Source: Schmidtea polychroa
Lineage: Eukaryota
Length of the DNA: 64,000 bases
Assembly (NCBI GenBank): GCA_044892525.1
Contig: CM097888.1
Span: 14,322,001-14,386,000, forward strand
Reading direction: 5' to 3'
In this document: positions 13,323 through 31,910 of the stretch, in pieces
Layout of the letters: each line of letters opens with the position of its first letter
How positions within the stretch are numbered: position 1 is the first letter of the stretch
The notes under the pieces: model-generated
Told to the model about the DNA's origin: nothing
Seen by the model: only the letters and a program-made list of their open reading frames with translations
Databases searched by the model: none
Made by a program: the position numbers and the translations under genes

Positions 13323-13802
13323 ATGTCGGAAGCTAGAAAACATCTACAACAGCTAAGCAGATTCATCGACATAGAAAACGATTCTCTAAAGACGTTAAGA
13401 GAAAAACTGCAACAAATAGAGACCCTAGAACAACAACGCCACGATGCACCTCTGATATCAAAACAAAATTATTTAACCAATAAACTGGGAGCAACAAACA
13501 CCGATACCGACTTGTCTACCCATTACCAATGGATGCAGCAACGACTCGACGACCCCGCTCTGAACATCGAATATGTGAGAATACGCGAACAAGTAAAAAC
13601 TTTGTCTCAAAGAATACGAACATCGATAGTAGAGAAAGCAGCGGTCTTAAGAACCTGTAACATTTGTAAGACGCGACCTGCCAAAATTCTAATTCTACCA
13701 TGTGGACACCTTAGCCATTGTGACGAATGTGCCGTCAGTTTAACGCATTGTTCTTTATGTGTATGTGTGATAAAGGAGAAGCACACGATTTACTTCAGTT
13801 AG
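13323..13802 (+). CDS. IAP-type C-terminal RING protein without BIR domains (159 aa)
   Basis: CNICKTRPAKILILPCGHLSHCDECAVSLTHCSLCVCVIKEKHTIYFS* shows XIAP/cIAP-like C3HC4 spacing and terminal aromatic tail, preceded by a coiled coil. Confidence 0.85.
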   Translation: MSEARKHLQQLSRFIDIENDSLKTLREKLQQIETLEQQRHDAPLISKQNYLTNKLGATNTDTDLSTHYQWMQQRLDDPALNIEYVRIREQVKTLSQRIRTSIVEKAAVLRTCNICKTRPAKILILPCGHLSHCDECAVSLTHCSLCVCVIKEKHTIYFS

Positions 13803-14384
13803 CACGCGATCAGCACTCGGTGAAAGAATTGATCTGATTGACGATTTGACTAAATCCTTTATGTTTAATTGATGGGTCAATAATTTTTTAGTAAATGTGT
13901 ATATTGCATGTGGCTTAAGCCAAATAATGAATAAAATGTTTTGTGTGTTCATTTTATTGTGAATTCAGTAACTTTATGATAATTTTCACCATAGAGAGAG
14001 AGCATCAATAAACTTAATTTAAACAAATAATATAAAGTGGAACTAGTCCCAACATAGGGTTAAAGGGGGAATAAACCGAGCCACCTTCGGGAGGTACGTT
14101 ATACAAATGCCGTTTGGGAAGGGACAACCGATCACCCCGAGTAAGAGATGTAAGGCGAGGTACCATCGCGAATATTGAAAAGTTTCTACGGTATGGCTGA
14201 TCACCATACCAATGTGGAAATGGATCAATGCGATCGTTTTGCGTTTTGAGCAAGGGGGGAAAGGGGAAAATATTCTCAAGCGGTGAAGATTAGGTCGACA
14301 AATAAAGTAAAAAATAAAGGAGATGACAGTTTAGAATAAAAGGAGAGGAGGAAATAGAAGCATGCAGATCAGGAGATATTAAGG

Positions 14385-14673
14385 TCGAGTTGTTGAATAG
14401 TCCAACCGGTCAGAAGAAGAAGATTGAGCTGTGAATAGTGCCAGCCAGTCGTAAGATCGAGTTGTTGAATAGTCCAACCGGTCAGAAGAAGAAGATTGAG
14501 CTGTGAATAGTGCCAGCCAGTCGTAAGATCGAGTTGTTGAATAGTCCAACCGGTCAGAAGGAAGAAGATTGAGCTGTTGAATAGTGCCAGCCAGTCGTAA
14601 GATCGAGTTGTTGAATAGTCCAACCGGTCAGGAGAAGAAGATTGAGCTGTTGAAAAGTGCCAGCCAGTCGTAA
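14385..14673. repeat. Tandem array, 4 copies of a 72-74-bp unit in the element leader
   Basis: Units start with TCGAGTTGTTGAATAGTCCAACCGGTCAG at 14385, 14457, 14529 and 14603. No variable spacers. Confidence 0.95.
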
Positions 14674-14957
14674 AGGCCTAAAGTAATAGTGAGATAGCAT
14701 TTAAGCTACAAGTTGATAACATTTAAAAATTACGAGTGAGATAGAATATTAAAGCTAGCTAGAAGCAAATTGAGTTTGAAATATGGAATTTGAATTTAGA
14801 AAGGATCAAACGAGCTCGTAAAAGATGATAGTAAAATTCTTTTAGTAAAGAAGGAGAAAAAGGAAAAGGAAAATGAATTAAGAATAATAGAAACAAAGAA
14901 TAAGTATGAATAGAGAATGAATCAAAGAGGAAATAATTAATTAATTAAAGGGGATCC

Positions 14958-14966
14958 CAGGTAAGT
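14958..14966 (+). promoter_or_regulatory. Consensus 5' splice donor upstream of gag
   Basis: CAG|GTAAGT with GT at 14961. A candidate nearby acceptor is TTTTTCATTGTAG ending at 15393. Confidence 0.5.
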
Positions 14967-16056
14967 AGACAAAAGTTCTACAGAATATTTTTGGTTTAAA
15001 CCGGTTAAACGAATTTTGTTTTGGTTCCAGAGCAGAACCGAGTAAAAGGAAATAGAGATGAAAGATTAAATGAATAAGCGGAACCGCGCAAAAGGATTAA
15101 GGAAAATATGGGGGGTAATAAGCAGTAACTGACAACGACCTATCGATATTATAAATGCTAACTATAGATAATTTATACGACTATATAGATAATTGTTACT
15201 ACCCCAAATAGATAATTAAAAATCGACGAAAACTATGGGTTGATGGGTAATTATATTCCGCGGAGAAGTGTATGAGGGGAAATGAAGAGAAGCATAACAG
15301 AGGCCCAAAAATGGTGTCTGTGCTTGAATGTGGTAAAAAGGAATGATTGATTCGTGTAAGCAAATGCAACACGATATCATTTTTTCATTGTAGATACCCA
15401 TCCAACCAAGTCAATTCAGAACCAGCCCAAAAGGAAGCCAGAGAATATACAAACAACCCAGGAAAAGCAATTCAGAACCCGCATAAAGAAAAACAAGCCA
15501 ATCCGAACACGGAGGACGACAACGACATCTTTACCTACGACGGAATTATCGAAATACTAAGCATCGACGTGATAGCAGCAGTCAATCAAGGACTCAGATA
15601 TCTCCTCCGGAAATCAGCCGAGAAATTACGCGGAATATTCCTCGAAGGAAACACTATCAGAACCAAACTTGACCAATTCAGCAGCCGCTAACCGTAGAAA
15701 AATCCACGTGAAAAGACAGAAAAGAGTAAGAAAGAATCACGGATAAACCCAACCTTAGATCTTCAAGTAAGCCAGGAGACGTATTATTTTCAGGAGACGA
15801 ATTAGATCAACTCAAAAGAGGACGATCATTTAGGCAGCAGAGAGGAATATCACAAGGAGCAAAAAGACCCCACAAAACACCGATATACGATCAAGAAAAC
15901 CCCACAGCCGGACATACGCCCAGTCGATCTAGAAGTAGAGAAAGCCTATCCGATATAACAAACAACCTAACCGGGTCAACAGAAGAATTATCCGTCCATA
16001 GTTTAGCTACATCGCTGGAAAATTTAAAAGGAATAATCGAGTTTCAAGAACCAATC

Positions 16057-16962
16057 ATGACGAATGTGGTAAAAACCGACGAATATAAAGAAAAATTTAG
16101 AGGCGAACCATTCAACGGGAATGCGAACAAGTTGGCAACGTTCATAACAAATTTTGAAGTCTATATCGATGTGTGTGGATGGACATCAGAAGCAATTAGC
16201 AAACGGATGCCGTTGTTTTTATGTGATAGCGCATTAGAAGTGTATCTAGAAGCAAAAGAAAGAAATACGAAGTTAGACAATTGGGAAAGCATCAAAACAT
16301 TTTTGAGAAAAACATTCGGAGCCAGCAAACCAATAAATCAAGCCCTAGGAGAATTAGCGAGTAGAAAACAAAGAGCAAATGAATCCATAACGTTGTATGC
16401 GAGTGAATTGCGAAGATTGGCAAAGAAGGCCATGAACGGAAACTTGCCGGAGGAAAATTTAATTGGTTATTTCATAGAAGGACTGCGCCGAGAAGAGGTA
16501 AGGGCCTCGGTGGGATGTCAAATGTGTAAAACACTAGAGGAAGCCATAGATTGGGCCACGAGATGCGAACTCCACCTCCCGGCACAAATGAATGTCATGC
16601 AAGAGGAAGGAAGAATCGCAACAGCAACGGTAAAAACTGAAAATGGAGAGAACAGCAATCATGAACCAAAAATGAATCAGTTTATACCCGGTGCGCATCA
16701 AATTTTCAAACCACCGCAAGGACGATCAAATGGGAATAACAGTGAACGCAACAACCCGAACAATGGGAATAATTTTAATAATCGACGAAACACGAACGAT
16801 AACAAACAATGCCGAACATGCGGTAAACCAGGACATTGGGATAGAGATTGCTACCGAAACGCAAATTGCAATAGGTGTGGACGACGAGGACACACGGAAA
16901 ATATATGCCAATTAAGAGGATGTTTTAACTGCGGTCAACTAGGTCATATCTCAAGAGACTGT
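16057..16962 (+). CDS. gag: Gag portion: capsid-like domain and three CCHC zinc knuckles
   Basis: PFNG...W...L...A...Y and RKQRANESITLYASELRRLA are retrotransposon gag features. Knuckles CRTCGKPGHWDRDC, CNRCGRRGHTENIC and CFNCGQLGHISRDC span 16810-16962. Confidence 0.92.
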
Positions 16963-19900
16963 CGAGAAAGGAGCCAACAACAACGACCACCACAGCGAAA
17001 TAATAACTATGCACCAAATCCGCAACGACAAAGTAATCCTAGTGAGGGAAAGCAAATGAATGTGATGCAAGAAATTTCACAAATGAAGCAGATGATGCAA
17101 CAAATGATGAGACCGAGACAAGAGCAAGTACCACAACAAACCCAGAATATACGCATGATGAGGAGCACCGAGAATCTTAACAACTATGAAGTACAACAAC
17201 ATGCACAAGAATGGCAAAGACTACAAGCTGAAGAAGAGAGGATAAAAAGAGAGCGAATCCAGCAGCGACAAGAACAACCATTACGAATAAATATGATGAG
17301 AATGGCAAGGGAGATAAAAGAGCAATATTGTTACAATTACGGTAAAAATCCAAGAGTTGTACCTATGAGCGAACCAGAGAAACCGAAAGAAACAATTCCA
17401 GCAGCAAAAAAGGAAAATTCAACAACATCGCTAAAAGGAAATCAGAGAATTCAGAAAATATTTTGGAAAAAGATAAAAGATAAAATCGAAAGAGAAAATG
17501 AAAAAACAAAAACAGAAGCAGAAGCGGAAAATGACGAAAATGAAAAACAGATTAATCATCTAAATCATGATATGATACGAGGATTAGACTCAGAGGAGCT
17601 AACGATACTCGAGAACAAAAAATTAAAGAAAGTACCAAGAATGAGAAATTTACGAATTAATATGATGAGGACAACAAAGAAGGTGTTGTCAACAGATGAC
17701 GATGAGGATTATGTGAGTAGCCTTGGTGGAGAAATGTTACAGTTAAATGAAAATATCGACCAACTAAGAGAAAAGATCGGAGCAGATGAGGATGAAAGTG
17801 AAAGCAACGTGACAAGCGAAAGCGAAGACGAGAATATCGAAATGAAATTGAGAAAAGAAAGAGAAGAAGCGATAAAACAAGTAAAGGAAATACTTCCAGT
17901 GGTGGTAAGAAACCAGGAATTCATTGACATCATACCATACAGACGCTTCACACAAAGGATAATGAAACTAGAAAGAAACGAAAAAGATCTAATACCAAAC
18001 GAGGAAAAAGCGATAATAAAGAAGTATATGGAAAAAATGAAACAAGCGGAGACAACACGCTATGTAATAAAAATCGGAACGAGCAAAGGACTCGAGAGAA
18101 TATGGATAAAAAATGCAGTTACAGACGATCTTTTCGATTGGATAAGAGAACATTTGGGCAGCTCGAGAAAGAAAGAATACCTGTATCAATATCAAGGAGA
18201 ACAAATCAAACCAGACATGCACCTAATAGATGCATTGATCTGGCCAGGAGAAACTCAAATATTGAAATTGCATAAAGAGAAGCAACCAGCGAATATTCAC
18301 GAATGGGCTAAAGACGCCAAGGCCGAGTATGACTTTAACATCAAGCTGAAGCTGGAGCAAATAAAACAATGCACCTTGCGACGAAATCTAGATAAATTAA
18401 TCAAACAAATCCAAGAACAAGTTGAAGATAACTGGGATTTGCTCATAACAAGACGAACTGCAGACATGCATGAACTAATGAGCCGACTGCGAGATACAGA
18501 ACTGCTCAGGATGAGCGATTGGAGAACCATAAATTTGATCCACAAATACGGAAGATTAAAAGAAACGCAACCGCAGAAATTAGAAATAACCATATGGTTA
18601 CCAAATGAGGAGAAACGACGAATAAAGATGAGTAATCAGAGTACGGTGGATGACTTAGTAACCAAGATAAACCAAGAGATAACGGAAAAAGTACGAAGCG
18701 AGAGCAGCGATGGTATGATAGATGACGTAGTCATGATGTACGATAAAATAATACTACGGGCTGAAGACGATACCTCGTTAAGTGAAATGGGAATGTGGGA
18801 TAATCATCAAATCATCAGAATATTGCCCATGGACGAATTCCGAACAAGAGATGTAACATACCAGAAAGAAATACGAGACAGGATGAAAACGCTATATCAA
18901 AAATCAGTAGAGATAATTGAAATTCATCAACAGTGGCTAAAAGAAAAAGAGCTTCAAGGAAAAATAAAGAAACTAAGTGTTAGATCCTGCAGACGAACCC
19001 CATGGGAAAGGATGTGGAATGCGGAAAACAAAGAATGGGAAATCAGGAAAGGGATTTTCGTGGAAACAGACATTGGTGAGATAGAAAGCGAATCAGAAGA
19101 AGAGGAAGATGAACCTCCAAAATACGAAGAGGACGAAATAAAATCGACATCGGACGACGAAAGCGAAACGGATGTTACGTCAGAAAGTGAAACGGAAACC
19201 AGGCATATTCATGCGATGAGAAAGAAGGAACGCGAATACGCCGACATAGACGGGGAAGAGGCAAAAGAAGCGAGAGAACGAGAAGAGAAGGAAAGATATA
19301 AACAATTAGGTGATATCTTAGCAACGGGAGCAAAAAATCAAAAACGTCAAGTAATAGCATTGGCTAACATCATCCTAAAGACATCAGAGAATATCCACAA
19401 TCTAAGAGAAATGGCGAAAGCGATTGAGGAATACCGACAATATAACGAATGGTACCCAGAACAGCTAGAACAAATTATTAGGAAATGGAGAAACCAAGAA
19501 TGGGCACAAGATACCCAGGAAAGGTATCGTATCCGAGTCAAGTATCCCGACAAAAGCATTGAGGATATAGAAGTACATCCAACAACAAAGATCAGAGAGT
19601 TAAAAAAGAAATTAGCATACGAAACTCCATTTCACCTACAACTATTCGGAAAATCGTTGGATGATAATGCAGATGTCGGAATAACACCCATGAGATTGGG
19701 GGAGATCAATGTATTGACAATGGCAGAAACATTGGGAAAACCGATTAAAAGGAAGAGCAAATCAAGTAAACCTACGAAAGGTAGCTTGAGTACACCAAGC
19801 CCTAACAAAGTAGCGAGTAAATCGAATGAAACCGAGGAAATCGAGGAAATTATATTGGAAGACAGCGATGAAGGAGCGGGAGAAAGATCACCAATTCTGG

Positions 19901-22900
19901 TAAGATGGCCGACAGGAGCCGAAATATGGACAACGAGCCAACCATCAACTAGCTATCAACAACCACATAAACTGAACATAGAGGAAATTATCGATAATAC
20001 AACAGAAACCGAAACCGACGAACAATTCCAACGACAGAAAGGACCAACGAAAGCAACACCAGAAGGTCAAACAGACAAAATAATAGACGAATGGAACGAA
20101 TGGCTGAGAAACAACGATAGCTCATTGCCCAGAACAGATAATGAGAGAAACCCGAAGTATGAAACGACAAGAGAAGCCGGAACAATGATGGAAAAACGGG
20201 CAAAAGGAAGACCTAGGAAGCAAGGAGAAAAACCAGAATTCAAAACTAGAGAACAACTGAAACAAGAACAAGGACAAGTCAGATTAGAGAAACTGGATAA
20301 AATAGTGTGGGACTTAAAAGAAGCTCAACCAACAATCGAGAGAGGCGAAAAATGGATACGAGAGCTAGTAAAAGATATGCTAATAATAACGAACCCACAA
20401 TTGCGACGGTTATGGCAACGAAAAGTAGCAAGCGTAGATGCCAGACAACTATGGAATACAATATCCGGAATAATTCCGAAATTAATCAAAGAGAAGACAA
20501 AAACCACTAAAACCGATTGGGAAGAGACAAGAAGAGTAATTGAACAATTAACTTTAAACGCAAACGACGACGAACATCATTTAGTAGTATTAACGTATCT
20601 AATGTACAATTTGATGGGATTAGCAGCAAGGAAAATACCTAACAAACAATTCGCAAATCATGTAGAAATGACCGTTACAATCATTGAAAATACAATCGAA
20701 CCACATATTATCCGCGCCGGTGGGTGGAAAAGACTCATACAAGCGCCACGAAAAAACGAGCAAGAGAGATCAATGCAAATTCGGTTGAAGAAATTGCTAA
20801 ACGAGCTGGAATGGGAATTACCATTGAAAGACCCAGCCAGCAGAAAAGCGTCGATTAATTCACTAATGATGACCATGATGATATGGATGCTCTGCACTAG
20901 TGGAGCCGCGGGATTTACTATTTACGACTGTGACAATTCAATAATAGGAGAAAGATACTCCCTGAGAGATATAGAGGAATGTAGACAGGCATCTCCGAAT
21001 AAATTAGATATAGTAAAAAAGAAAGTCTCCTATCACGTATACCAAGAATCAGATTTCATTAGAACGCAAGCTAGAGAATGCGTAGTATCGAAGAAAGTGT
21101 TGGCATACTACTGTGGACAATACTCATATTCAACCCTTATATTACCGGGATTAGATAAAGAAATAGTACCTATACAACGGGAAGACTGTAAAGAACTTTT
21201 TAGAACCGGAGCGATGAGAATCAGGGATGGAGTAACCATACACGGACAAAGCGGAATGATCAAGACGGAAAGTATCTATGTAGCCGGACGAGTAAAATCA
21301 ACTGATGGATCATGTAACGGAGGCACATATACGATCAGAGGAGAAGTGATCTCGGGAGTAGTAGTAATTGAGTCCTACACAGTGGAGTTGAAGGAATACG
21401 AAGCACAATTCGACGCAAACAACTATCAAATGAAAACCAACCCAGCATGCAGAGCTACGGAAAACGTGTGTAGAACGGGAATTTCGACTATAATATATGA
21501 AGCTAACACCCAAAAATGCCGACTGCAATTGTTAAAAAGTGCTCTATTCAATGAAGTAAAAGGAGAAATTTACGAAAACGAGGATGACGATGAAGAGAAT
21601 GGGAACGTAAGGATGCGAAATGGGAAACCAGTCCCGCCATCCCCCAAAGAAAAGAGACTCACAACCCAAAAAACACCAACGGCATTAATTACAGATGATC
21701 CGGACATCGGCATGAGATTCATTAGAGAAAAAGAGACCACCAAATGTGACAGCATAGTATATCGGACGAACTACGCAGGTATCTACATGTCAAGGCAAGT
21801 AATAGACCGAGCAGTGGGAAAGGTAGCAACAGAGGACGTAAAATTGTACCTGTACGCTAATAACAAAATGGACTTTTTATTTCATCGAGGACAAACGACA
21901 ATGCAAAAAGTGTATTACGATCTTATACAAAATGACTGTTCATTGAATAAAGAGATACTAAAAACAAAATTAGCTATCGCAATAACACACCCAGATAACA
22001 CAATGCCATCACTCCCGTTACCGGATGGACATTTTGGTAGAATGGTGGGAGAGGTAATGTATACATATGCATGTACCAAGACATTTGCGCGACTGCCAAG
22101 AAAGCCCACAATTCCACCAGGGAAATGTGCAAACGAATTAGAAATTAGCTACAAAGGGCGGAACAGATTCGTTCAACCAGTCACTCGAATTATGAACCCA
22201 ATTGGATTTTATCCGAACACCTTTAACTGTTCAAATGCATACGGACCGTTATATGAAAAACCCGATGGGAAATGGATAATGTTACCGGTAAAAACCGAAG
22301 TACAAGAACCTAAAAAGTTTGGATTAATAGAACTCGCAACAGAGCAAGACTTCAAACCAATTGATGTGTCAAAAGCGGGTATGTACTCACCAGAGGATTT
22401 AGAAACGGCACGATTAAACGTATTATTCCCAGCAAGGCGAGAATCCATTCTATCAAATATGGTTACCATAACTGGGGGAACGAATTTCCAGTCAGGCCCC
22501 AATTACGAACTATTATTGTCACCCGATCATTTTCAACAAGCCACGTCAAACATGATGAAAGCAATGTGGGGAAGATTTCTAGTGTTCGGTCAAATGATGG
22601 CAGGAATATTGGGAATCATCTTAATTATCCAGATTGTTAGAGTGATATTGACTCAAATGCTAGCGTGTTTTGATATCTATAAGAGAGAAAAGAAAGTAAA
22701 TTGGAAGTTGATAGTAGGTTTTCTACCATTTTTGGCAAAAACAATGGTGTTGCACGGTCATTCTAAAGATATACACAGAATAAAACGATTAATCAAAATA
22801 CTGACAAAAATAAAAGGGACTGACGAGGAGGTCGGTAGACGATTTCGGAAAACAATGTATGATGAAGCAACAAGGACGCAACTGAAAAAGAACAAACCAA

Positions 22901-25900
22901 AATTTTTGGACAGATTTAGAAATCGGTCAAACAGCAGCGATAGCGATGATGACGACAACGGGAATGACAAATACCCATATCCAAGTAGAAACCCGAATGA
23001 AAAGCCAATAGAAACAGCGCCATATTGGGAGAAAGAAAAAACAAATACCTGGATAACCAACGGAAGTTATATACCACCAGATATCGTTGGACAACAAACA
23101 GCTTTGACCATGACACAAAATATGTATCCACAGTTACCAAGTCAACCAGGGATGAACTATATGCCGAACCGAAGAACGAAAAGCGTAGACCAAGCGGATG
23201 ACGTAAGAACGATAGCAGTGATGAGTTCACCAGGAGGCGCGGCAGTAACAGTCATGATCCAAATCAACGGGAAAGAGACAAGCGCAATGATAGATACCGG
23301 AGCAAATGTATCAGCAATAGCAATCAACCAAATACCCAGTAAATGTTGGAAAGACATCGAACAAACAACTATCCATATCATCGCATGCAGTAAAGAAACC
23401 GTAGACGTAGTAGGAAGATGGTGGACTACGTTAAGATATCAAGATAACGAAATTGAAACGTATCTAGCGGTGATACCCAAACTGAGTGAACCATGTATAA
23501 TCGGAACGGATTTAATGCCAGAATTGTTCAAGGAAGTAGTGATCGATTTAACAACAATGTGTCTAAAGGACAAAACGGGTAGAATATGCAAGATGAACGC
23601 AATAATTAGATGTCCGGAGAAAATAATTGTACCAGCAAAATCACAGATGATATGTCAAATAAAAGTGGATGCAGGAATGGAAGGAGAAGTCATTTTTGAG
23701 CCAAGCAAATCATTCGAAAAACGACGAGAATTACCATTAGCAAGAGAAATAATAACAATAAATGAAGACGGGGAAATACCAATCAACATCACAAATTTCG
23801 AGGAAGAAGATAAAATCATATATGAAAATGAAAGATTGGGTAGATTGACACCCATGATAGACATCGAATTACCAAAAATCACCAACGAAACAACGAAAGC
23901 TGACGAATTATGGATAATTGACAGCACCTTGCTAACGGAAAAAGAAAAGGAAAGACTTCAACAATTATTGATAGAATATAAAGATATATTCGCAATTTCG
24001 GATTTAGATTTGGGAGCATGCGATGTTACATTACACGCAATACCATTAATAGACGAAACTCCAATCGCACTACGTCCATACAAACTAGCAGAGAAGCAAA
24101 AAGAGATAGCCGAAGCAGAAGTACAAAAAATGCTAGATGCACAAGTGATCGAACCAAGTTGTTCGCCATGGCAATTTCCCGTAGTCATGGTGAAGAAAAA
24201 AGATGGTACTCAGAGATTCTGTATCGATTATCGGAAATTAAATGCAGTAACAAAAAGAGACACATACCCGTTACCAGACATCAATGAGATGTTACTTATG
24301 TTACAGGGGGCCGCATATTTTACATCTTTAGATCTGAAAAGCGGATATTGGCAGATCAAAGTCAAAGAGGAAGACAAAGAGAAAACAGCATTCACATTGG
24401 GCCGAGATCTATACCAATTCAGGAAAATGCCGTTCGGACTGACCAATGCCCCAGCATCATTCCAGAGATGTATGAATTTTGTCACACATGGGATCAAGCA
24501 GTGTATGGTATATATTGATGATTTATTAATATATTCAGCAACATTCGAACAACATTTGGAAGATATCAGAAACGTGTTCGTTCGATTACGACAATGGAAA
24601 TTGAAACTCAAACCATCCAAATGTGATTGGGCAAAAGAAAAGGTTACGTTCTTAGGACACATAGTGTCAGCAAAAGGCAAAGAACCAGATCCAAGAAACA
24701 TAGAAAAAATAAAAACATGTCCAGCACCAAAAACTGTCACCCAAGTTCAAGAATTTCTCGGATTATGCGGATATTATCGAAAATTCATCAAAAACTATGC
24801 AGGTATTGCGAAACCAATACAGGACTTAGTGAAAAAGGATATTTCATTTATTTGGGGTGCAGAACAACAAAAAGCATTTGAGACATTGCGAGATAAATTA
24901 ATTGAAGCTCCAATACTGGTACATCCTGATTTCAAGAAACCGTTCTTATTAGCAACAGATGCAAGTGGATATGCAGCCGGAGCAATATTAGGACAACTGG
25001 ATGAAGAGGGAAAAGAAAGAGTGATTGGATACTACAGTAGAACGTTTAAAAAGCATGAGAAAAACTATTCCGTAACCGAGAGAGAAGCATTAGCAATTAT
25101 ACAAGCGATTAAACATTTTCGATATTTGTTGTGGGGACACGAAATATGTATCACAACAGATCATCAACCACTAGTATGGCTTGGCCAACACAAAGAAGCT
25201 TCAAGTAGATTGATGCGATGGGCAATGCAGTTACAAGAATATTCACCGTTCATAAAATTCAAAGCGGGAAGAGCGAATGCCAATGCGGATTGTATGTCCA
25301 GATTTATCTTTCCAGATTTAGTAGATCACGAAACGCAACGAATATGTCTGATGGTAGCAGAAGATCTAGATTTTTGCCAATTACGGAAAGACCAACAAGA
25401 GGATACAGAGTTGAAGCAAATCATTGAATATGTGAAAACAGGGAAAGCAGAGGTATATGAGAAAGATCAAAAATTGAAGGAGCATATGGATAAACATCGA
25501 CATCGATATATTATCGAGAAAGACTGGTTGTTGATAATGGATGGAGAAAAAAGACTGATGTGCATCCCCGAGAATAGACGTAAAGAGCTGCTAACACAAT
25601 ACCATGACGGAAGACTCGGAGGACATATGTCATCTAAAAAGACGTTGGCACGAATGAAACAAAAGTATTTTTGGCCTACATTGACCGAGGATGTAACGGA
25701 ATGGGTGAAAAATTGCATAACTTGCGCAACCAGAAAAAACACGGGAACCAAATGGAAGGCACCATTAAAGCCAATGCCAGTACCAGCAGAACCAATGACC
25801 ATGATATCAATGGACGTGGTCGGTCCACTACCAGAATCAGATAGAGGAAATATATATATATTGGTAATCACAGACTATTTGACGAAATTCCCCGAAGCAT

Positions 25901-28900
25901 TCGCTATGGCAGATCAGAAAGCAAGAACAATCGCAAAAATACTAGTAGAGGAGATATGTTGTCGATATGGAACACCAAAACAGATATTAACTGACCAAGG
26001 AACAAATTTCATGAGCGAAATAATGAGCGAAGTCACCAACTACTTCAAGATCGCAAAATTAAGAACATCACCGTACCATCCACAAACTAATGGTATGACG
26101 GAAAGATTCAATGGAACACTGATTCAAATGTTATCAAATTATGTCGATCGTCATCAACGCGACTGGGACGAGTATATAAAATTATGTTTAATGGCTTACA
26201 GAATGTCGATTCACGCGTCCACAAAGATGAGTCCGTTCAAGTTGATGTACGGCAGAGAATGCAATATGCCAATGGATTTGGAGTATCAGCCACCAATATC
26301 ACAGTACATGGAAATAGACGATTATGTAACCAAGTTCAAGGAAAGAATGCAGGAAATCTGGGAAACTGCAGGATTGAATATAAAATTTTATCAGGAAAGT
26401 TACAAAGATCTACATGATAGAAAGAAAAACGTCAAACAGCATACGTTTCAAACAGGCGATTGGGTGATGATCGAAACACCAGAATTAATTCTAGGAACCA
26501 CCAAAAAATTACAACGAAACGGTAAAGGTCCGTATGAGATCCTATTCATCGGAGAAACCAATGTAAGAGTACGATTGGTAAACAACCCCTTCACAAGGCC
26601 AATATATGTAAATGTGGCACGATGTAAGCCAATACCGAAAACAGCCACCAGCCAGCCGGAAGGGCGAACATTAACAACAAGATCACAAACATATAGAATA
26701 AATATGTTACAGCAGATAAACGAACCAACAGGTAACCGATTGGGGTTACAACCATCAGAAGCCGAGAAAATCATAAAGGAAGTGAAAGCTAAAATGCCCG
26801 GATGGGCAGAAGACAGATTAGATTTTGAGATATTGGGAGGTCTGCTAACAATGATCGAAAATTATGCAAACCGAGAAAGGACACACCCATTACTCAGGGT
26901 AGTAAAAAGTCAATGGCCTATATTATTTACGATCACAGACCATTATGGAGATACACCGCTGCACAAACTTTTAAAGGTCGGGAATAATGAACAAATACTG
27001 GAAACGATCGAAGCATTTCGCGATTGTAACGTTTCAACAGATCAAGAAAATAACCAAGGTTACACTCCACTAATGATAGCAGCCAATCGGGATAAAGCTA
27101 AAGATATTATCATCGCATTACTTGAAACTGGGTCAAAGATAACCACACAAGACCACAACCAGAAAAATGCACTACATCATGCAATCGAAGGGAAAAGTAC
27201 GGAAGCCTTCATAATCTTAGTAGATCTATTATCATATGAGGATAATAGGGAGATAGGAAACATGTATGACGGGTTATTAACTGCAATCAAAGAGAAATTA
27301 ATAATAATTACTGGAATACTAATTGCGTGGAGGAACCCGATCAAAAACGATTATATGGTAGATATAAACGAAACATTTACCAAAGGAGAAAATACCTTGA
27401 TGAGGGAAGCGATGAGAGGACATCACCTATTCGAAATTCCAAATCAACTACTACAACGTGGCATAAAGTTTTCAAATCACAAAGACGAACAACTAATCAG
27501 AAAACGAATTACCAACTTCGAAAAAGCTATATCTCAATTTACCGATAAAGTACAAGTAAAATTTTGGGAAACCGTGAGTGTATTATATATGATGGAAACT
27601 ATGAACAACATTCGAGAAAACTACCTAAGTATTATTCAAGTGCTTACGGCGGAAGAACGCATTAACAGTTCAAACAAGAAAAAGATAAAAATAAAGAAAG
27701 TAAAAACAAGGGAGTCCGAGGAACAAGTCGATCAAATAATAACCGAGATAGCAACAACAAGTAAACCCAAGATAATAAACTCAGACCAGGAGATAATAAT
27801 ACGCAAAGCCAAAGAGGTGTTCTTTGAAGAAATGCAAGATCTATCCGATGAAGCGATACTAGCAAAAATAACAAAAACAGTACACACCTACGCAAGAGAC
27901 CAGACCACAAATCTAGACATAGAAAAAATAAAAACATTTATACCACTAGCATTCACCTTACCAACAAAAGACTCAAGAACACCATTACAACAAGCCATTT
28001 TAGCAGCAAAAGAAAACAGAGCAATAACCATCATAAGAATCCTGGGAGACTTCGGAGAAGAATCTAATGCAAAAAACGAACAAGGAGAAACAGCAATAAT
28101 GTATGCAGCCATAACAAATATACACCCGAAAACATTACATATACTACATCGATCGGGATCAAGACTGGACGAAATATCAAACGAAGGAAATTCTACCATG
28201 GATTGGGCAACCATACAACCAAACTTGGAAATGATTAGATTCATTTGTAAAAATGCTACAAGAACTGAGGTAGAAAATATCTGTAAAAACACGTCACAGT
28301 TCCAATGGAACACGATACGGATGAACTTAGAAGCCATGAAGTTATTGCTAACATGGAAAATACCGCAAAGCAATAAACATGCAATAAATATAAATGAGTT
28401 CTACGAAAACGGAGAAAATGCTATGGTTAAAAATACACTAACAAAAGGAGGAACTCCGAAAATCATAATGATCGTATTGAACAGAGAAGACCTCAAATTC
28501 ACGCAAAATCTAAACGAACAAAAGCGGATTGGAAAACATCGCCGTATACAATTGAGAGAACTGGTAAAAGAATGGAATAGAAAGAGACATGTAGCAACAG
28601 GCAGAAAAGAGTTTGAATTCGAGGCAAAATTAGCAAGGAATAGAGTGTTAACGGCATATCGCAGATTATTGAACGACATAAATGTCGAGGACGACATTTC
28701 AAACGATAGCGGGGGAGATAAAGACGATAAAGACGACGATAATAATGAACAAGGTCGAAGCGGGAATGGAGAGAAAGAGAAATCAGAGGAAAATAATCAA
28801 GGGAATAACGACTCAGGTATAAAAAAGGAGGAAAATAAACCGGGAAGCCGAACAAAGGAAGAGGAAAAGACGAATAATGGGAAACAGAGGGTATGCCCAC

Positions 28901-29904
28901 TTTTTACCAACAAGGAAATGGAAACAAATATGATGGTAATGATACTCATACTAACAATGATAGAAATGATAACAGCCCACGGTGGAATGAGAACGATAAA
29001 AGAAGCCAAGGAAACGGAAAACAAAGACAACAAGGAGAAGGAACTAAAGCAAGAAAAGAAGAAGCAAGTACGAGAGCAACAATGGGATTTAAAAGAAGAA
29101 TGGGATCTAAAAGAAAGATGCATACTAGGAAGATGTATGTCGAGAGCATATCGGAGACTAGTATTAATAAATGAAGATACAGAACCAATAACGGAAGTAA
29201 GAATACAAGAAGCATACCGGAATCGAGACGGGAAGAGAATAACTAAAGTCAAAGGGAAGGAGGTACACCTGAGAAAAGGAGGTGAGGTAGTGATAACGCA
29301 ACTCCAGCCAAGAAAAGAACACAAAGTCTGCATTTCAAGATTAGGACCGGGTGAAGACTGTCTACAATATGTAACACAGCAACAACCTCCAAAAGAATAC
29401 ACAGTATGCATCTGGAGAAACGATACAGCGAGAGAATGTCGACGATACCCTGGGAGAAGAGGGAGGAAAAGAAAAATCAATGACGAAAAAGATGAGCAAG
29501 GAAAACGCAAGAAAACCGATGAAAACCAGATGGAGAAAATACAAAGAATGGCAAAGGAAGGTATGAACGAGGAAATAGCAAGAATACGAGGAATGATGAA
29601 AGGAAATGGCAAAGACGGTAATCTAAAAAGCACAGAAGCAATATCAACAATAGCGAACAAGGAAAAAGCAGAAATTATAAGCGTAAAACAGATGATGTGG
29701 ATCAGCGGCATAATAATAACAGGGGCCTTTTTAATCATAACGGGGGGGACAATAAAAATAATCAAAGATAGACGGCATCGCGGAGAACTAGAAATGGCCA
29801 GAATAAGAAATTTTCAACATCGTGTAAGACGACCAAGTAATATCAAGCAGGAACAGTGGGTGGAGGCCTGGAATGCTCAGCGCCCTCCAAGCTCACGTAT
29901 ATAG
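16057..29904 (+). CDS. 4615-aa single-ORF polyprotein Gag-UBL-Bcl2-Env-PR-RT-RH-IN-ANK-TM
   Basis: Uninterrupted 13.8-kb ORF with recognisable motifs listed in the sub-features. Confidence 0.95.
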   Translation: MTNVVKTDEYKEKFRGEPFNGNANKLATFITNFEVYIDVCGWTSEAISKRMPLFLCDSALEVYLEAKERNTKLDNWESIKTFLRKTFGASKPINQALGELASRKQRANESITLYASELRRLAKKAMNGNLPEENLIGYFIEGLRREEVRASVGCQMCKTLEEAIDWATRCELHLPAQMNVMQEEGRIATATVKTENGENSNHEPKMNQFIPGAHQIFKPPQGRSNGNNSERNNPNNGNNFNNRRNTNDNKQCRTCGKPGHWDRDCYRNANCNRCGRRGHTENICQLRGCFNCGQLGHISRDCRERSQQQRPPQRNNNYAPNPQRQSNPSEGKQMNVMQEISQMKQMMQQMMRPRQEQVPQQTQNIRMMRSTENLNNYEVQQHAQEWQRLQAEEERIKRERIQQRQEQPLRINMMRMAREIKEQYCYNYGKNPRVVPMSEPEKPKETIPAAKKENSTTSLKGNQRIQKIFWKKIKDKIERENEKTKTEAEAENDENEKQINHLNHDMIRGLDSEELTILENKKLKKVPRMRNLRINMMRTTKKVLSTDDDEDYVSSLGGEMLQLNENIDQLREKIGADEDESESNVTSESEDENIEMKLRKEREEAIKQVKEILPVVVRNQEFIDIIPYRRFTQRIMKLERNEKDLIPNEEKAIIKKYMEKMKQAETTRYVIKIGTSKGLERIWIKNAVTDDLFDWIREHLGSSRKKEYLYQYQGEQIKPDMHLIDALIWPGETQILKLHKEKQPANIHEWAKDAKAEYDFNIKLKLEQIKQCTLRRNLDKLIKQIQEQVEDNWDLLITRRTADMHELMSRLRDTELLRMSDWRTINLIHKYGRLKETQPQKLEITIWLPNEEKRRIKMSNQSTVDDLVTKINQEITEKVRSESSDGMIDDVVMMYDKIILRAEDDTSLSEMGMWDNHQIIRILPMDEFRTRDVTYQKEIRDRMKTLYQKSVEIIEIHQQWLKEKELQGKIKKLSVRSCRRTPWERMWNAENKEWEIRKGIFVETDIGEIESESEEEEDEPPKYEEDEIKSTSDDESETDVTSESETETRHIHAMRKKEREYADIDGEEAKEAREREEKERYKQLGDILATGAKNQKRQVIALANIILKTSENIHNLREMAKAIEEYRQYNEWYPEQLEQIIRKWRNQEWAQDTQERYRIRVKYPDKSIEDIEVHPTTKIRELKKKLAYETPFHLQLFGKSLDDNADVGITPMRLGEINVLTMAETLGKPIKRKSKSSKPTKGSLSTPSPNKVASKSNETEEIEEIILEDSDEGAGERSPILVRWPTGAEIWTTSQPSTSYQQPHKLNIEEIIDNTTETETDEQFQRQKGPTKATPEGQTDKIIDEWNEWLRNNDSSLPRTDNERNPKYETTREAGTMMEKRAKGRPRKQGEKPEFKTREQLKQEQGQVRLEKLDKIVWDLKEAQPTIERGEKWIRELVKDMLIITNPQLRRLWQRKVASVDARQLWNTISGIIPKLIKEKTKTTKTDWEETRRVIEQLTLNANDDEHHLVVLTYLMYNLMGLAARKIPNKQFANHVEMTVTIIENTIEPHIIRAGGWKRLIQAPRKNEQERSMQIRLKKLLNELEWELPLKDPASRKASINSLMMTMMIWMLCTSGAAGFTIYDCDNSIIGERYSLRDIEECRQASPNKLDIVKKKVSYHVYQESDFIRTQARECVVSKKVLAYYCGQYSYSTLILPGLDKEIVPIQREDCKELFRTGAMRIRDGVTIHGQSGMIKTESIYVAGRVKSTDGSCNGGTYTIRGEVISGVVVIESYTVELKEYEAQFDANNYQMKTNPACRATENVCRTGISTIIYEANTQKCRLQLLKSALFNEVKGEIYENEDDDEENGNVRMRNGKPVPPSPKEKRLTTQKTPTALITDDPDIGMRFIREKETTKCDSIVYRTNYAGIYMSRQVIDRAVGKVATEDVKLYLYANNKMDFLFHRGQTTMQKVYYDLIQNDCSLNKEILKTKLAIAITHPDNTMPSLPLPDGHFGRMVGEVMYTYACTKTFARLPRKPTIPPGKCANELEISYKGRNRFVQPVTRIMNPIGFYPNTFNCSNAYGPLYEKPDGKWIMLPVKTEVQEPKKFGLIELATEQDFKPIDVSKAGMYSPEDLETARLNVLFPARRESILSNMVTITGGTNFQSGPNYELLLSPDHFQQATSNMMKAMWGRFLVFGQMMAGILGIILIIQIVRVILTQMLACFDIYKREKKVNWKLIVGFLPFLAKTMVLHGHSKDIHRIKRLIKILTKIKGTDEEVGRRFRKTMYDEATRTQLKKNKPKFLDRFRNRSNSSDSDDDDNGNDKYPYPSRNPNEKPIETAPYWEKEKTNTWITNGSYIPPDIVGQQTALTMTQNMYPQLPSQPGMNYMPNRRTKSVDQADDVRTIAVMSSPGGAAVTVMIQINGKETSAMIDTGANVSAIAINQIPSKCWKDIEQTTIHIIACSKETVDVVGRWWTTLRYQDNEIETYLAVIPKLSEPCIIGTDLMPELFKEVVIDLTTMCLKDKTGRICKMNAIIRCPEKIIVPAKSQMICQIKVDAGMEGEVIFEPSKSFEKRRELPLAREIITINEDGEIPINITNFEEEDKIIYENERLGRLTPMIDIELPKITNETTKADELWIIDSTLLTEKEKERLQQLLIEYKDIFAISDLDLGACDVTLHAIPLIDETPIALRPYKLAEKQKEIAEAEVQKMLDAQVIEPSCSPWQFPVVMVKKKDGTQRFCIDYRKLNAVTKRDTYPLPDINEMLLMLQGAAYFTSLDLKSGYWQIKVKEEDKEKTAFTLGRDLYQFRKMPFGLTNAPASFQRCMNFVTHGIKQCMVYIDDLLIYSATFEQHLEDIRNVFVRLRQWKLKLKPSKCDWAKEKVTFLGHIVSAKGKEPDPRNIEKIKTCPAPKTVTQVQEFLGLCGYYRKFIKNYAGIAKPIQDLVKKDISFIWGAEQQKAFETLRDKLIEAPILVHPDFKKPFLLATDASGYAAGAILGQLDEEGKERVIGYYSRTFKKHEKNYSVTEREALAIIQAIKHFRYLLWGHEICITTDHQPLVWLGQHKEASSRLMRWAMQLQEYSPFIKFKAGRANANADCMSRFIFPDLVDHETQRICLMVAEDLDFCQLRKDQQEDTELKQIIEYVKTGKAEVYEKDQKLKEHMDKHRHRYIIEKDWLLIMDGEKRLMCIPENRRKELLTQYHDGRLGGHMSSKKTLARMKQKYFWPTLTEDVTEWVKNCITCATRKNTGTKWKAPLKPMPVPAEPMTMISMDVVGPLPESDRGNIYILVITDYLTKFPEAFAMADQKARTIAKILVEEICCRYGTPKQILTDQGTNFMSEIMSEVTNYFKIAKLRTSPYHPQTNGMTERFNGTLIQMLSNYVDRHQRDWDEYIKLCLMAYRMSIHASTKMSPFKLMYGRECNMPMDLEYQPPISQYMEIDDYVTKFKERMQEIWETAGLNIKFYQESYKDLHDRKKNVKQHTFQTGDWVMIETPELILGTTKKLQRNGKGPYEILFIGETNVRVRLVNNPFTRPIYVNVARCKPIPKTATSQPEGRTLTTRSQTYRINMLQQINEPTGNRLGLQPSEAEKIIKEVKAKMPGWAEDRLDFEILGGLLTMIENYANRERTHPLLRVVKSQWPILFTITDHYGDTPLHKLLKVGNNEQILETIEAFRDCNVSTDQENNQGYTPLMIAANRDKAKDIIIALLETGSKITTQDHNQKNALHHAIEGKSTEAFIILVDLLSYEDNREIGNMYDGLLTAIKEKLIIITGILIAWRNPIKNDYMVDINETFTKGENTLMREAMRGHHLFEIPNQLLQRGIKFSNHKDEQLIRKRITNFEKAISQFTDKVQVKFWETVSVLYMMETMNNIRENYLSIIQVLTAEERINSSNKKKIKIKKVKTRESEEQVDQIITEIATTSKPKIINSDQEIIIRKAKEVFFEEMQDLSDEAILAKITKTVHTYARDQTTNLDIEKIKTFIPLAFTLPTKDSRTPLQQAILAAKENRAITIIRILGDFGEESNAKNEQGETAIMYAAITNIHPKTLHILHRSGSRLDEISNEGNSTMDWATIQPNLEMIRFICKNATRTEVENICKNTSQFQWNTIRMNLEAMKLLLTWKIPQSNKHAININEFYENGENAMVKNTLTKGGTPKIIMIVLNREDLKFTQNLNEQKRIGKHRRIQLRELVKEWNRKRHVATGRKEFEFEAKLARNRVLTAYRRLLNDINVEDDISNDSGGDKDDKDDDNNEQGRSGNGEKEKSEENNQGNNDSGIKKEENKPGSRTKEEEKTNNGKQRVCPLFTNKEMETNMMVMILILTMIEMITAHGGMRTIKEAKETENKDNKEKELKQEKKKQVREQQWDLKEEWDLKERCILGRCMSRAYRRLVLINEDTEPITEVRIQEAYRNRDGKRITKVKGKEVHLRKGGEVVITQLQPRKEHKVCISRLGPGEDCLQYVTQQQPPKEYTVCIWRNDTARECRRYPGRRGRKRKINDEKDEQGKRKKTDENQMEKIQRMAKEGMNEEIARIRGMMKGNGKDGNLKSTEAISTIANKEKAEIISVKQMMWISGIIITGAFLIITGGTIKIIKDRRHRGELEMARIRNFQHRVRRPSNIKQEQWVEAWNAQRPPSSRI
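18058..19725 (+). CDS. Three ubiquitin/SUMO-like folds inside the polyprotein (~18058-18280, ~18574-18835, ~19519-19725)
   Basis: For example RIRVKYPDKSIEDIEVHPTTKIRELKKKL...LQLFGKSLDD parallels ubiquitin [29 protein letters not shown]...RLIFAGKQLED. Confidence 0.6.
20280..20740 (+). CDS. Bcl-2-like helical domain
   Basis: All-helical segment ending in BH2-like TIEPHIIRAGGWKRL (GGW at 20719-20727). BH1 is degenerate. Confidence 0.55.
20851..22671 (+). CDS. env: Envelope-like fusion glycoprotein (chuvirus/Monjiviricetes-type, class III-like): signal helix, Cys-rich ectodomain, TM
   Basis: Signal-like LMMTMMIWMLCTSGAAG is followed by FTIYDC...YSLRDIEEC...REC-V-KKVLAYYCGQYS and about 14 Cys. 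TM FLVFGQMMAGILGIILIIQIVRVIL lies at 22576-22650. Confidence 0.75.
23227..23560 (+). CDS. pro: Retropepsin aspartic protease
   Basis: AMIDTGANVS (DTG at 23293-23301) and the IIGTDLM motif. Confidence 0.93.
23960..25310 (+). CDS. pol: Reverse transcriptase and RNase H
   Basis: RFCIDYRKLN, LDLKSGYWQI, MPFGLTNAPASFQR, YIDD (24511-24522), LATDASG, EREALAI and TTDHQPL. Confidence 0.97.
25560..26640 (+). CDS. int: Integrase (HHCC, DDE core, GPY/F)
   Basis: HDGRLGGH...CITC, SMDVVGP, TDQGTNF, NGMTERFN and GKGPYEI. Confidence 0.96.
26935..28260 (+). CDS. Ankyrin-repeat region fused after integrase (two clusters)
   Basis: GDTPLHKLL, GYTPLMIAA and QKNALHHAI, then SRTPLQQAI, GETAIMYAA and GNSTMDWAT. 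Confidence 0.85.
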
Positions 29905-30072
29905 AAAGGATTATGACTGTATATAGATTGTAAAAAGTAAGTAGACAATATTTATTTATATAACAGTATGATATATTTTTATACAAGCGCGGTATCAATA
30001 GTATATAATGATGGGGATAATTAACATAAAAATAAAATTAGATAAGGATTGAAAAGTATATATAACTTAAGA

Positions 30073-30432
30073 ATGGAACGAATAGGCGAGGAAGTAAATC
30101 ACAGTACGACAACCGAGGAGATGTGGAAACAACAATGTGCAATGTTAACTCAAGTGATTTCGAATTTACAGGAACAAGGACTCGCTGTACAAAGAAGCTT
30201 AGTCGAAAGTTTAAATAAAGGCTTCAGTTATGTAAGAATAATCGAAGACCAACGAATAAAAATAGAACAAATGCAGCGAGAGATAGACCGAATATCACGA
30301 TACAGCCAGGTGCAAGAAGAGGAGTTAATAAGAATCGCGGAAGAGATGGAGCGAGAGGAGATAGAAGACTGGTCAGAATGGTTAACCAGCAGGGAAGAGG
30401 GCGGACAAGAGGCCGACTCTTCCAGCCAATAA
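30073..30432 (+). CDS. Accessory coiled-coil protein (119 aa)
   Basis: First ATG is at 30073 (the ORF track starts at an upstream TTG). Heptad-rich with an acidic tail and the same codon style as the element. Confidence 0.6.
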   Translation: MERIGEEVNHSTTTEEMWKQQCAMLTQVISNLQEQGLAVQRSLVESLNKGFSYVRIIEDQRIKIEQMQREIDRISRYSQVQEEELIRIAEEMEREEIEDWSEWLTSREEGGQEADSSSQ

Positions 30433-30521
30433 ATATAACCTAAAATAGCAATGTAAATAACTGTAAATAAAAATACGAAACTGTACCAGTAACGAATATA
30501 TGTATATATATAATTATAGAA

Positions 30522-31394
30522 ATGGATAAGCGACAACGAGAAGAATTCAAAGAAATTGTCGAACAAGTCAGAAAGTCCACCACAATTCGAATACACAACC
30601 ATGTAACGTGTGGAATATGCAAGAACTTATTAAGAGAACCTCACCAAACCCGATGTGGATGCAGAATGTGCAGAGAATGTGTAGAGGAGGTAATAAAGAA
30701 GGGACCACAATGGTGCCCAGTATGCAAAGAAACAATGATAACAAGTTTGGGAGATACAAACGAAGATAAAGCAGCTGTAAAAGATATGATGAATGCAAAC
30801 CTAGGATGCAAAAACACCCCATGTAATTGGCGAGGAGTGATATGGGAAGTGAGGCAACATATGGAGCAATGTGAATATAAAATCAGTCAATGCAAACGTT
30901 GCCAAGAAGAGATTAAAGTCAATGAAGAAGCAGAACATCAAAGTCGATGCGAAGAAAGACTGGAGAAATGTGAGTATTGCGGAGAAACCGACACCTGGAA
31001 AAAACTAATCAGTCAACATCACAACATACAAGAGGAGAAAGTGTGCGCAGAATTCAGAGGAGAATGCCCCAACAAATGCGATAAACCCGGAGTAATAAAA
31101 CTCGCTCAACATCTGAAAGAATGTGAAAGGAAAAAGATAAGGTGTGTGTTAGGAAAATGGGGATGTCAGAAACAATTACACCGAGGGGAATTACCCCAAC
31201 ATCTAGCAGAAAACGTATCAACACACGCGGAAATATGGTCAACGGTATTACAAGAAAACGAAAGGAAAACCGAAAACTTAGAAAGAGAAATAGTCTCGCT
31301 AAAAGCGTTGGTAAAAGAACTATTGGAAGAAAAGGAAGCATTCGAAGAGGCGAGAACAAGCACAAAGATACAAACAGATCTAGTAGAAACTTAG
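30522..31394 (+). CDS. TRAF homolog N-terminal part (RING, TRAF zinc fingers, coiled coil)
   Basis: CGICKNLLREPHQTRCGCRMCREC...CPVC, CKNTPCNWRG...HMEQC and CVLGKWGC...HL are TRAF-type motifs. Ends at TAG 31392-31394. Confidence 0.88.
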   Translation: MDKRQREEFKEIVEQVRKSTTIRIHNHVTCGICKNLLREPHQTRCGCRMCRECVEEVIKKGPQWCPVCKETMITSLGDTNEDKAAVKDMMNANLGCKNTPCNWRGVIWEVRQHMEQCEYKISQCKRCQEEIKVNEEAEHQSRCEERLEKCEYCGETDTWKKLISQHHNIQEEKVCAEFRGECPNKCDKPGVIKLAQHLKECERKKIRCVLGKWGCQKQLHRGELPQHLAENVSTHAEIWSTVLQENERKTENLEREIVSLKALVKELLEEKEAFEEARTSTKIQTDLVET

Positions 31395-31400
31395 AACATT

Positions 31401-31910
31401 ATGGTGAAAGAACTACATCAAAAAGTAAGCGAATTAAACCTCAACGAATTAATACCAACGGCTCCATACATATGGAAGATAACGGGAGTAAAAGAGAAGA
31501 TGCAGAGAGCGAGAAATGGAAAGGATACAACATTACTAAGTCCAGCATTCTACTCATGGAAAAACGGGTATAAAATGAAAATGAAAGCATACCCCAATGG
31601 GGATGGAAGTGCATATGGAACGCATTTCTCAGTATTCTTCTTGATATGCAAAGGGCTATACGACGAGTTAATAGAATGGCCATTCAAAGCAAAAATAGAC
31701 CTCGCAATGATGAACTATCAAAGTATACATGAACAGAGTTTCCATACAGCGGGAAGCCTCGTATGTTACCAAAGACCCTTGGAAGAAGAAGGACCAGCAA
31801 CTGGAGCACCGAATTTCATCCTACAGCGGAAAGTAGAAGACATGACGAGAAACGACACTATATACATAAAAATAGCGGTGAGGCGAGACGGGAAGAGTAG
31901 GACTGAGTAG
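31401..31910 (+). CDS. TRAF-C/MATH domain protein, in frame with the TRAF N-part
   Basis: YIWKITG, SPAFYS...GYKM...YPNGDG...THFSVFF...G.YD..IEWPF, YQRP and DTIYIKIAV. Confidence 0.92.
   Translation: MVKELHQKVSELNLNELIPTAPYIWKITGVKEKMQRARNGKDTTLLSPAFYSWKNGYKMKMKAYPNGDGSAYGTHFSVFFLICKGLYDELIEWPFKAKIDLAMMNYQSIHEQSFHTAGSLVCYQRPLEEEGPATGAPNFILQRKVEDMTRNDTIYIKIAVRRDGKSRTE

Follow-up and report, generated by a model that had tools for sequence, protein, structure and literature searches.

Death- and ubiquitin-like cargo is under purifying selection in a giant gypsy-type retroelement from Schmidtea polychroa

Introduction

The Burro/GYPSM1 elements of planarians exceed 30 kb in length and encode a polyprotein of approximately 4900 amino acids (aa; range 4600-5100) with three CCHC zinc knuckles in gag (PMC6431247 section 7). 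According to the same section, Burro1-4/GYPSM1 are known from Schmidtea mediterranea and other Dugesiidae, carry MATH_TRAF_C, BIR, ankyrin, BCL2-like and Ubi2/SUMO-like domains together with an env placed in frame between gag and pol, and have already been proposed to meddle with host apoptosis and ubiquitination; the cargo is reported to vary from one Burro element to another (PMC6431247). Burro-type elements are described as silenced by PIWI, and BURRO1 as enriched in the intestine and, after RNA interference (RNAi) of smedwi-2, upregulated in differentiated cells (PMC8532177). Literature searches brought up one paper that deals with the Burro cargo and no functional test of it. Here we analyse a 64,000-nucleotide stretch of Schmidtea polychroa DNA (assembly GCA_044892525.1, contig CM097888.1, positions 14,322,001 to 14,386,000; hereafter the window) containing what is very probably a giant gypsy retroelement of Burro type that bears an env and was inserted very recently in a planarian-type genome. 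The element class is already published, as are its list of cargo and the idea that it meddles with apoptosis and ubiquitin, and neither the list nor the broad hypothesis put forward in an original prediction for this DNA is new in that respect; what is added here is the selection acting on the cargo.

Results

The element was found to be a gypsy-type long terminal repeat (LTR) retroelement of 30.3 kb (8735-39041; Table 1), forming a block of ~39% GC between AT-rich flanks. All five motif types of the original prediction (IAP-type RING, Bcl-2-like, ankyrin, TRAF and ubiquitin-like (UBL)) do lie within its LTR boundaries. The internal open reading frames (ORFs) are all on the + strand and comprise 159, 4615 and 119 aa, a TRAF of 462 codons, and 345, 247 and 211 aa. 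As the two LTRs, direct repeats of 4.1 kb each, differ by just 3 mismatches and 1 indel, the comparison points to a very young insertion.

Selection on the cargo was assessed from pairwise Nei-Gojobori ratios of nonsynonymous to synonymous substitution (dN/dS) between the window copy and 7 other copies, or 17 diverged copies in the case of the RING ORF. The Bcl-2-like domain returned values of 0.00-0.03, with 0.01-0.02 for the reverse transcriptase (RT)-RNase H (RH) region and 0.00-0.04 for env. Low values were likewise obtained for UBL1 (0.04-0.05), UBL2 (0.00-0.02), the two ankyrin blocks (0.02-0.05 and 0.05-0.19), the RING ORF (0.04-0.16) and TRAF (0.06-0.22, one value being saturated). UBL3 ranged from 0.04 to 0.57, the values above 0.04 resting on 1-3 synonymous differences. 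Because dN/dS is far below 1 wherever synonymous differences suffice, the cargo is not neutral; it is under purifying selection between subfamilies rather than carried as baggage, and the Bcl-2-like domain is constrained at the level of RT.

Relatives of the element were sought across a genome of 781 Mb (1012 contigs), in which three element families were seen: A (that of the window), B (a sister family) and C (a third). Family A gave 952 candidates for the Bcl-2-like region, and the 150 that were scored showed 95-100% identity; a stop inside the region was present in 6 of these 150 copies. Among 30 loci, the RING ORF is uninterrupted in 28 and the TRAF frame is open in 27. The comparison of dN/dS across copies that the original prediction had proposed thus finds the cargo neither neutral nor usually broken. 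That part of the prediction which has the element keeping host-like death and ubiquitin cargo is borne out by purifying selection and mostly intact copies; the part that assigns this cargo to one integrated pathway is not, and the selection shows use by the element rather than any single pathway.

Alone, the Bcl-2-like domain is only weakly recognisable, with a Pfam E of 0.03 that fails the cut-off. A single-sequence search of the PDB produced no Bcl-2 match, and HMMER with this region against 1.84 billion representatives produced 0 matches. When profiles of the related element families were used, however, Bcl-xL was matched at E 5e-4, and hhalign against six Bcl-2-family sequences of the same genome gave 93% and E 3e-7. 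The homology to pro-survival Bcl-2 extends over BH1-BH2: the BH2-like GGW is kept, being invariant across element families that are ~17-31% identical, and the NWGR of BH1 is replaced in all three families. Structure models were of low confidence, with predicted local distance difference test (pLDDT) values of 48 for the sequence alone and 53 for an 8-row alignment, and three fold searches with these models gave no significant match for the region; the Foldseek list was filled by Bcl-xL at E 0.36 or worse, and a VIA Z of 6.3 stood among ties. The basic GRP motif in front of the domain is presumably AT-hook-like, and the order of basic GRP motif, Bcl-2-like domain and env is common to all three families. 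A local cluster of seven near-identical Bcl-2 genes (L130-L136; G000:C4:89.9-90.8 Mb) has the canonical NWGR and does not match the element.

The ubiquitin-fold domains behave similarly, in that alone they reach a Pfam E of 0.0055 (failing the cut-off), and with profiles of related element families they match ubiquitin and ISG15 at E 6e-6 to 6e-5. The C-terminal di-glycine of conjugatable ubiquitin-like modifiers is absent from all three UBLs.

The RING ORF matched cIAP1, cIAP2 and XIAP in the PDB at E 5e-9 to 2e-6, and the best 10 of 12 matches were the RINGs of cIAP1, cIAP2, XIAP and livin. Pfam detected no BIR in any scanned ORF of the window element, the RING ORF included. The last Cys pair reads CSLCV and so contains neither Pro nor the linchpin Arg, this position being Val or Ala in 30/30 loci and Lys in a diverged subfamily. 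Arg is reported to be the most effective RING linchpin, XIAP nonetheless working with Tyr (PMC12326332). Furthermore, cIAP1/2 are reported to bind TRAF2 via BIR1 (PMC8869227); since the RING ORF has no BIR, the cIAP-TRAF2/3 module envisaged by the original prediction is unsupported.

The TRAF gene of the window copy is interrupted by an in-frame stop (31392-31394). This stop is present in 1 of 30 loci, and programmed readthrough was rejected on that ground; the full layout of RING, zinc fingers, coiled coil and MATH holds at family level. When an intact sister copy was used, the best matches of its TRAF were TRAF3, 2 and 1; a word-index search with a sister TRAF returned 1 unnamed match. In a tree of 21 MATH domains, those of the elements, together with one row of unknown origin, formed a weakly supported group (81/80) from which 12 further TRAFs of this genome were separate. 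This weak grouping fits one old capture followed by duplication and does not show the repeated captures aimed at one pathway that had been predicted. A test of element MATH domains as one clade (p-AU 2e-14) was set aside, as the rows labelled host include one copy of an element (L205) and one whose origin is unknown (L202). MATH domains borne by elements are abundant in the genome. Planarian TRAF/MATH transcripts are reported to be unusually numerous (PMC6109357), and host TRAFs to be required for cell survival in S. mediterranea (PMC7586133). Several non-element TRAFs were observed in open frames of 454-473 aa (G000:C2:16.2 Mb and 29.2 Mb; C4:15.0 Mb), which points to full-length genes of one exon each, and C2 has a large MATH gene cluster at 105-124 Mb.

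Downstream of TRAF, the 345-aa ORF (32126-33163) occurs in two forms, with ~98% and ~80% DNA identity, in 16 and 14 of 30 loci. The TRAF genes beside both forms are all 97-99% identical, and this pairing of two ORF forms with near-uniform TRAFs implies recombination between subfamilies. An LMP1-like role for the 211-aa ORF, through a TRAF-binding motif in the tail that follows its transmembrane (TM) segment, was considered and rejected: the motif occurs in 11 of 16 homologous ORFs, its place is not conserved, and it is missing from the two most diverged groups.

The ankyrin blocks matched generic ankyrin proteins and, in the ESM Atlas, generic ankyrin clusters; IkB was absent from the best 60 of their 186 PDB matches. 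S. mediterranea is reported to possess seven highly divergent Rel homology domain (RHD) genes while lacking a clear homolog of NF-kB (PMC13563047), and the predicted IkB mimicry is unsupported on both counts. A search of the genome analysed here for the RHD gave 0 matches, with uninformative controls, and was accorded no weight. Taken together, the proposed TNF/NF-kB circuit is weak, the cargo being without components that it requires.

Elsewhere in the polyprotein, env has a TM segment at aa 2180-2198. The spacer between protease (PR) and RT, where a dUTPase-like region has been published for Burro with the use of HHpred, is conserved; no dUTPase was detected in it by profile searches of Pfam and the PDB. 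A border motif occurs 15 times in the polyprotein, the average over shuffles being 5.5, and in a stricter form it occurs 7 times (0.37 over shuffles), the pattern having been picked by eye after the sequence was seen. Its sites include both ends of the protease, the border of RT and integrase (IN) and that of IN and the ankyrins. At the C-terminus (28927-29901), which had no match in Pfam or the ESM Atlas, hydrophobic segments at aa 4292-4310 and 4543-4561 flank a Cys-containing region, and this part is possibly a membrane protein.

In accord with the published description of Burro (PMC6431247), TRAF and BIR are found shuffled between the polyprotein and the accessory ORFs. A diverged subfamily has the gene order of the window element, with a RING ORF that is 42% identical. 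Family B (L111-L114), the RT of which is 84% identical to that of the window family, has a Burro1-like layout in which MATH lies inside the polyprotein and is followed by a separate TRAF and then a 393-aa BIR-RING IAP. In one copy (L111:6400-9138; G000:C1:201.1 Mb) the TRAF ORF leads directly into the BIR-RING IAP. A BIR search of the genome gave 309 candidates, of which 150 were scored, and the family B RING has the canonical CPMCR form in all 18 motif matches among 21 loci. For a true IAP-TRAF module, family B is a more promising candidate than the window family. Family C (L150-L153, L160, L161) is compact (gag-Bcl-2-like-env-pol) and its Bcl-2 domain is more recognisable (Pfam Bcl-2 E 2e-6). 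As this family is ~30% identical yet keeps gag, Bcl-2 and env in order, the position of the Bcl-2-like domain beside env is old.

Among 17 insertions, compared as LTR pairs or as solo LTRs, 16 have a perfect 4-bp target-site duplication. The exception is the window copy: the bases at 8731-8734 and 39042-39047 do not form the perfect duplication common to the family, and the six bases just 3' of the 3' LTR are the same as the start of the internal leader. The duplication may be missing because the copy is a truncated tandem or has recombined, because the duplication has mutated, or because of the assembly. The primer-binding site is putatively tRNA-Pro-like, and its motif follows the LTR at 13 of 30 listed LTR loci. 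Both the diverged subfamily and the sister family have LTR ORFs to which the 253-aa ORF within the LTR is related, and a decayed relative is located at 54.6-55.8 kb (55396-55755, - strand).

Table 1 Features of the element and of its flanks, in window coordinates
Feature	Position	Strand	Remarks
5' LTR	8735..12829	+	4095 bp, TG...CA ends
253-aa ORF inside 5' LTR	11534-12295	+	no Pfam match; 3' LTR counterpart 37746-38507
Primer-binding site, 18 nt	12837..12854	+	past 5' LTR
RING ORF, 159 aa	13323..13802	+	helical N-terminus and C-terminal IAP-type RING; Pfam zf-C3HC4_3 E 2e-8
Tandem array, 4 x 72 bp	14380..14673	+	non-coding, in leader
Polyprotein, 4615 aa	16057..29904	+	gag, CCHC x3, UBL x3, Bcl-2-like, env, PR, RT, RNase H, IN, ankyrins, C-terminus
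gag capsid motif and three CCHC zinc knuckles (aa 252, 271, 289)	16057..16962	+	Pfam
Three ubiquitin-fold domains	18049-18291, 18589-18861, 19519-19746 (span 18049..19746)	+
Basic GRP motif	20197..20220	+	just 5' of Bcl-2-like domain; in all three element families examined
Bcl-2-like helical domain	20314..20781	+	Bcl-xL match covers ~20527-20748
env, Monjiviricetes-type fusion glycoprotein	20860..22683	+	Pfam E 8e-72; in frame between gag and pol
Protease (DTGA), RT (YIDD), RNase H, integrase	23251..26256	+	Pfam; order PR-RT-RH-IN
Two ankyrin blocks	~26917-27264 and ~28000-28260 (span 26917..28260)	+	Ank_2 E 1e-15
Helical accessory ORF, 119 aa	30073..30432	+	open in 30/30 loci; sister family has one too
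TRAF gene, 462 codons	30522..31910	+	RING, Zn fingers, coiled coil, MATH; Pfam MATH E 2e-25
Three accessory ORFs: 345 aa, 247 aa (coiled-coil-like), 211 aa (single-TM, P/Q/S/T-rich tail)	32126..34714	+
3' LTR	34946..39041	+	99.9% identical to 5' LTR
LUC7-like exon	40982-41545		animal best matches
1437-aa ORF	47133-51521	-	no Pfam match
DDE_1 transposase fragment	53366-53896
RING-H2-like ORF	58975-59823

Discussion

Set beside the architecture, homologies, purifying selection and mostly intact copies observed here, the reading that we favour, with modest confidence, is that the host-derived domains are maintained by selection as separately acting accessory proteins, which help producer cells to survive or dampen TRAF/ubiquitin stress signalling to the advantage of the element and its propagation. 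The element protease would cut the polyprotein at recurrent sites near aa 534, 1051, 1600, 2386, 2513, 3096 and 3548, freeing UBL1-UBL2, a UBL3/AT-hook-like/Bcl-2-like piece, env, the enzymes and an ankyrin piece. The UBL3/AT-hook-like/Bcl-2-like piece would adjoin the env signal peptide, such that the site just before this peptide would decide its membrane anchoring, and RING and TRAF are predicted to be made from separate ORFs or messages. In the particle-producing cell, each of the cargo proteins would then influence host survival and ubiquitin signalling on its own. The Bcl-2-like domain would serve as a viral-type Bcl-2 of divergent sequence; TRAF would be an adaptor, competing or rewired, amid the many TRAFs of the host; and the RING, which has no BIR, would either be a weak ligase or act on host IAP RINGs as a dimerisation decoy. 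Neither a cIAP-TRAF2 ligase nor an IkB-NF-kB switch would be expected from this cargo.

Several points weigh against an anti-death role of this kind. The window copy, with its near-identical LTRs, still has a broken TRAF. Constraint is not confined to the death-like cargo, which with its ubiquitin-like domains makes up just ~20% of internal coding residues; the acidic linker (dN/dS 0.04-0.07) and the unassigned ORFs (0.04-0.41) are constrained as well, and the fact that these are about as conserved as the cargo also speaks against the predicted aim at one pathway. Three of the 7 compared copies represent one subfamily, saturation affects several of the dS values, and the examined loci, being those with the best scores, lean towards young, intact copies. 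RNAi of BURRO1 is reported to have left the smedwi-2 phenotype unaltered (PMC8532177). Finally, the loss of NWGR from BH1 and the DNA/RNA-binding-type basic motif before the Bcl-2-like domain would fit a structural role too.

Such a structural role, whereby cargo has been co-opted for particle building or traffic, with the AT-hook-like/Bcl-2-like piece beside env serving as a matrix-like helical scaffold or nucleic-acid binder and UBL, RING and TRAF in ubiquitin-dependent assembly or release, is on balance unlikely, if worth keeping in view. It would account for a Bcl-2-like domain, under RT-like constraint, that in each of the three families has gag on one side and env on the other, follows a basic GRP motif and has a degenerate BH1, and expression within the polyprotein would make this domain equimolar with Gag. 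Against it stand a BH2-like motif that is invariant across families ~17-31% identical and the canonical BIR-RING IAP (CPMCR) beside TRAF in the sister family, the latter being difficult to see as structural. That same arrangement, TRAF adjoining a full BIR-RING IAP, makes the integrated TNFR/NF-kB toolkit of the original prediction more plausible in family B. For the window family, where it would call for a cIAP-TRAF2/3 ligase made up of RING and TRAF, ankyrins in the part of IkB, a Bcl-2-like domain that blocks intrinsic death, and protection of stem cells, we consider it improbable. The RING is indeed most similar to those of cIAP/XIAP, the TRAF of the intact sister copy to TRAF3/2/1, and all of the cargo is under purifying selection; set against this are a RING ORF without BIR, BIR1 being the reported TRAF2-binding part (PMC8869227), a linchpin that is Val/Ala in 30/30 loci and Lys in the diverged subfamily where Arg is described as most effective (PMC12326332), ankyrins with no IkB in the best 60 of 186 PDB matches, and a relative, S. 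mediterranea, for which no clear NF-kB homolog is reported (PMC13563047). Protection of stem cells, moreover, runs contrary to the reported expression of BURRO1 in differentiated, intestine-enriched cells and to an RNAi without change (PMC8532177).

The remaining explanations place the benefit outside the element or dispense with one. Maintenance of the cargo by host selection, as domesticated survival genes, would be in keeping with the reported number of planarian TRAF/MATH transcripts (PMC6109357) and the abundance of element-borne MATH domains in the genome. We regard it as very improbable: the constraint acts between actively spreading subfamilies (intact RT and IN, young LTRs, scattered private stops), which is how selection on the element lineage would look, and the elements are reported to be PIWI-silenced (PMC8532177). 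Neutral hitchhiking of captured host fragments is scarcely credible. In its favour, TRAF is broken in the window copy as well as at 2 others of the 30 loci, but dN/dS is far below 1 for each cargo domain with enough synonymous differences and most copies are intact.

The selection result thus removes the neutral-baggage reading and ranks the most constrained domains, with the Bcl-2-like domain at the level of RT. The occurrence of a BIR-RING and a RING-only family in one genome provides a natural comparison in an RNAi-tractable animal. Should the cargo work as we favour, namely on survival and stress signalling, a retroelement would be using a strategy of large DNA viruses, and transcriptome counts of planarian TRAF, IAP and Bcl-2 genes would need to be checked for element-derived sequences. 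A more speculative extension, which we hold to be doubtful, is that Burro elements are endogenous planarian viruses whose weapons against cell death and immunity are functional and have been reshuffled from family to family; the BIR-RING IAP of the window family would then have become a RING-only decoy, the anchoring of the Bcl-2-like domain would be switched by cleavage at the env signal peptide, and element TRAFs may explain part of the planarian TRAF expansion.

Among known systems, the viral Bcl-2 proteins (poxvirus F1L, M11L and DPV022; KsBcl-2 of KSHV) resemble the element in presenting a divergent Bcl-2-like domain on a mobile element. The domain described here differs in residing within a retroelement polyprotein, between a presumed AT-hook-like motif and the env signal peptide. 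As in poxviral Bcl-2, its BH motifs have been lost in part, and poxviral Bcl-2 proteins without recognisable BH motifs are reported still to antagonise Bax/Bak (PMC11209288). Ankyrin repeats are shared with the IkB family and with viral ankyrin mimics of IkB, whereas those of the element form two short, separated blocks with generic best matches. With the cIAP1/2-TRAF2 module the element has in common a C-terminal RING of IAP type with an aromatic residue in its dimerisation tail, a TRAF2/3-like MATH domain and a full TRAF layout; it differs in a RING ORF that has no BIR, and in which no UBA or CARD was detected, in a last Cys pair without Pro or Arg, and in the broken TRAF of the window copy.

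The closest resemblance is to Burro/GYPSM1 as published. Shared with these elements are a length above 30 kb, long LTRs, one polyprotein, three CCHC knuckles, an in-frame env and the order PR-RT-RH-IN, together with Ubi-like domains, a BCL2-like domain before env, ankyrins, TRAF/MATH, IAP-derived cargo and accessory ORFs (PMC6431247 section 7). Compared with the published description of Burro1, the window family contains neither BIR nor, within the polyprotein, MATH, and has instead a RING-only ORF 5' of gag and a full TRAF ORF 3' of pol. Because Burro elements are reported to vary in cargo (PMC6431247), the missing BIR is a family difference from Burro1 and not an exclusion from the Burro group.

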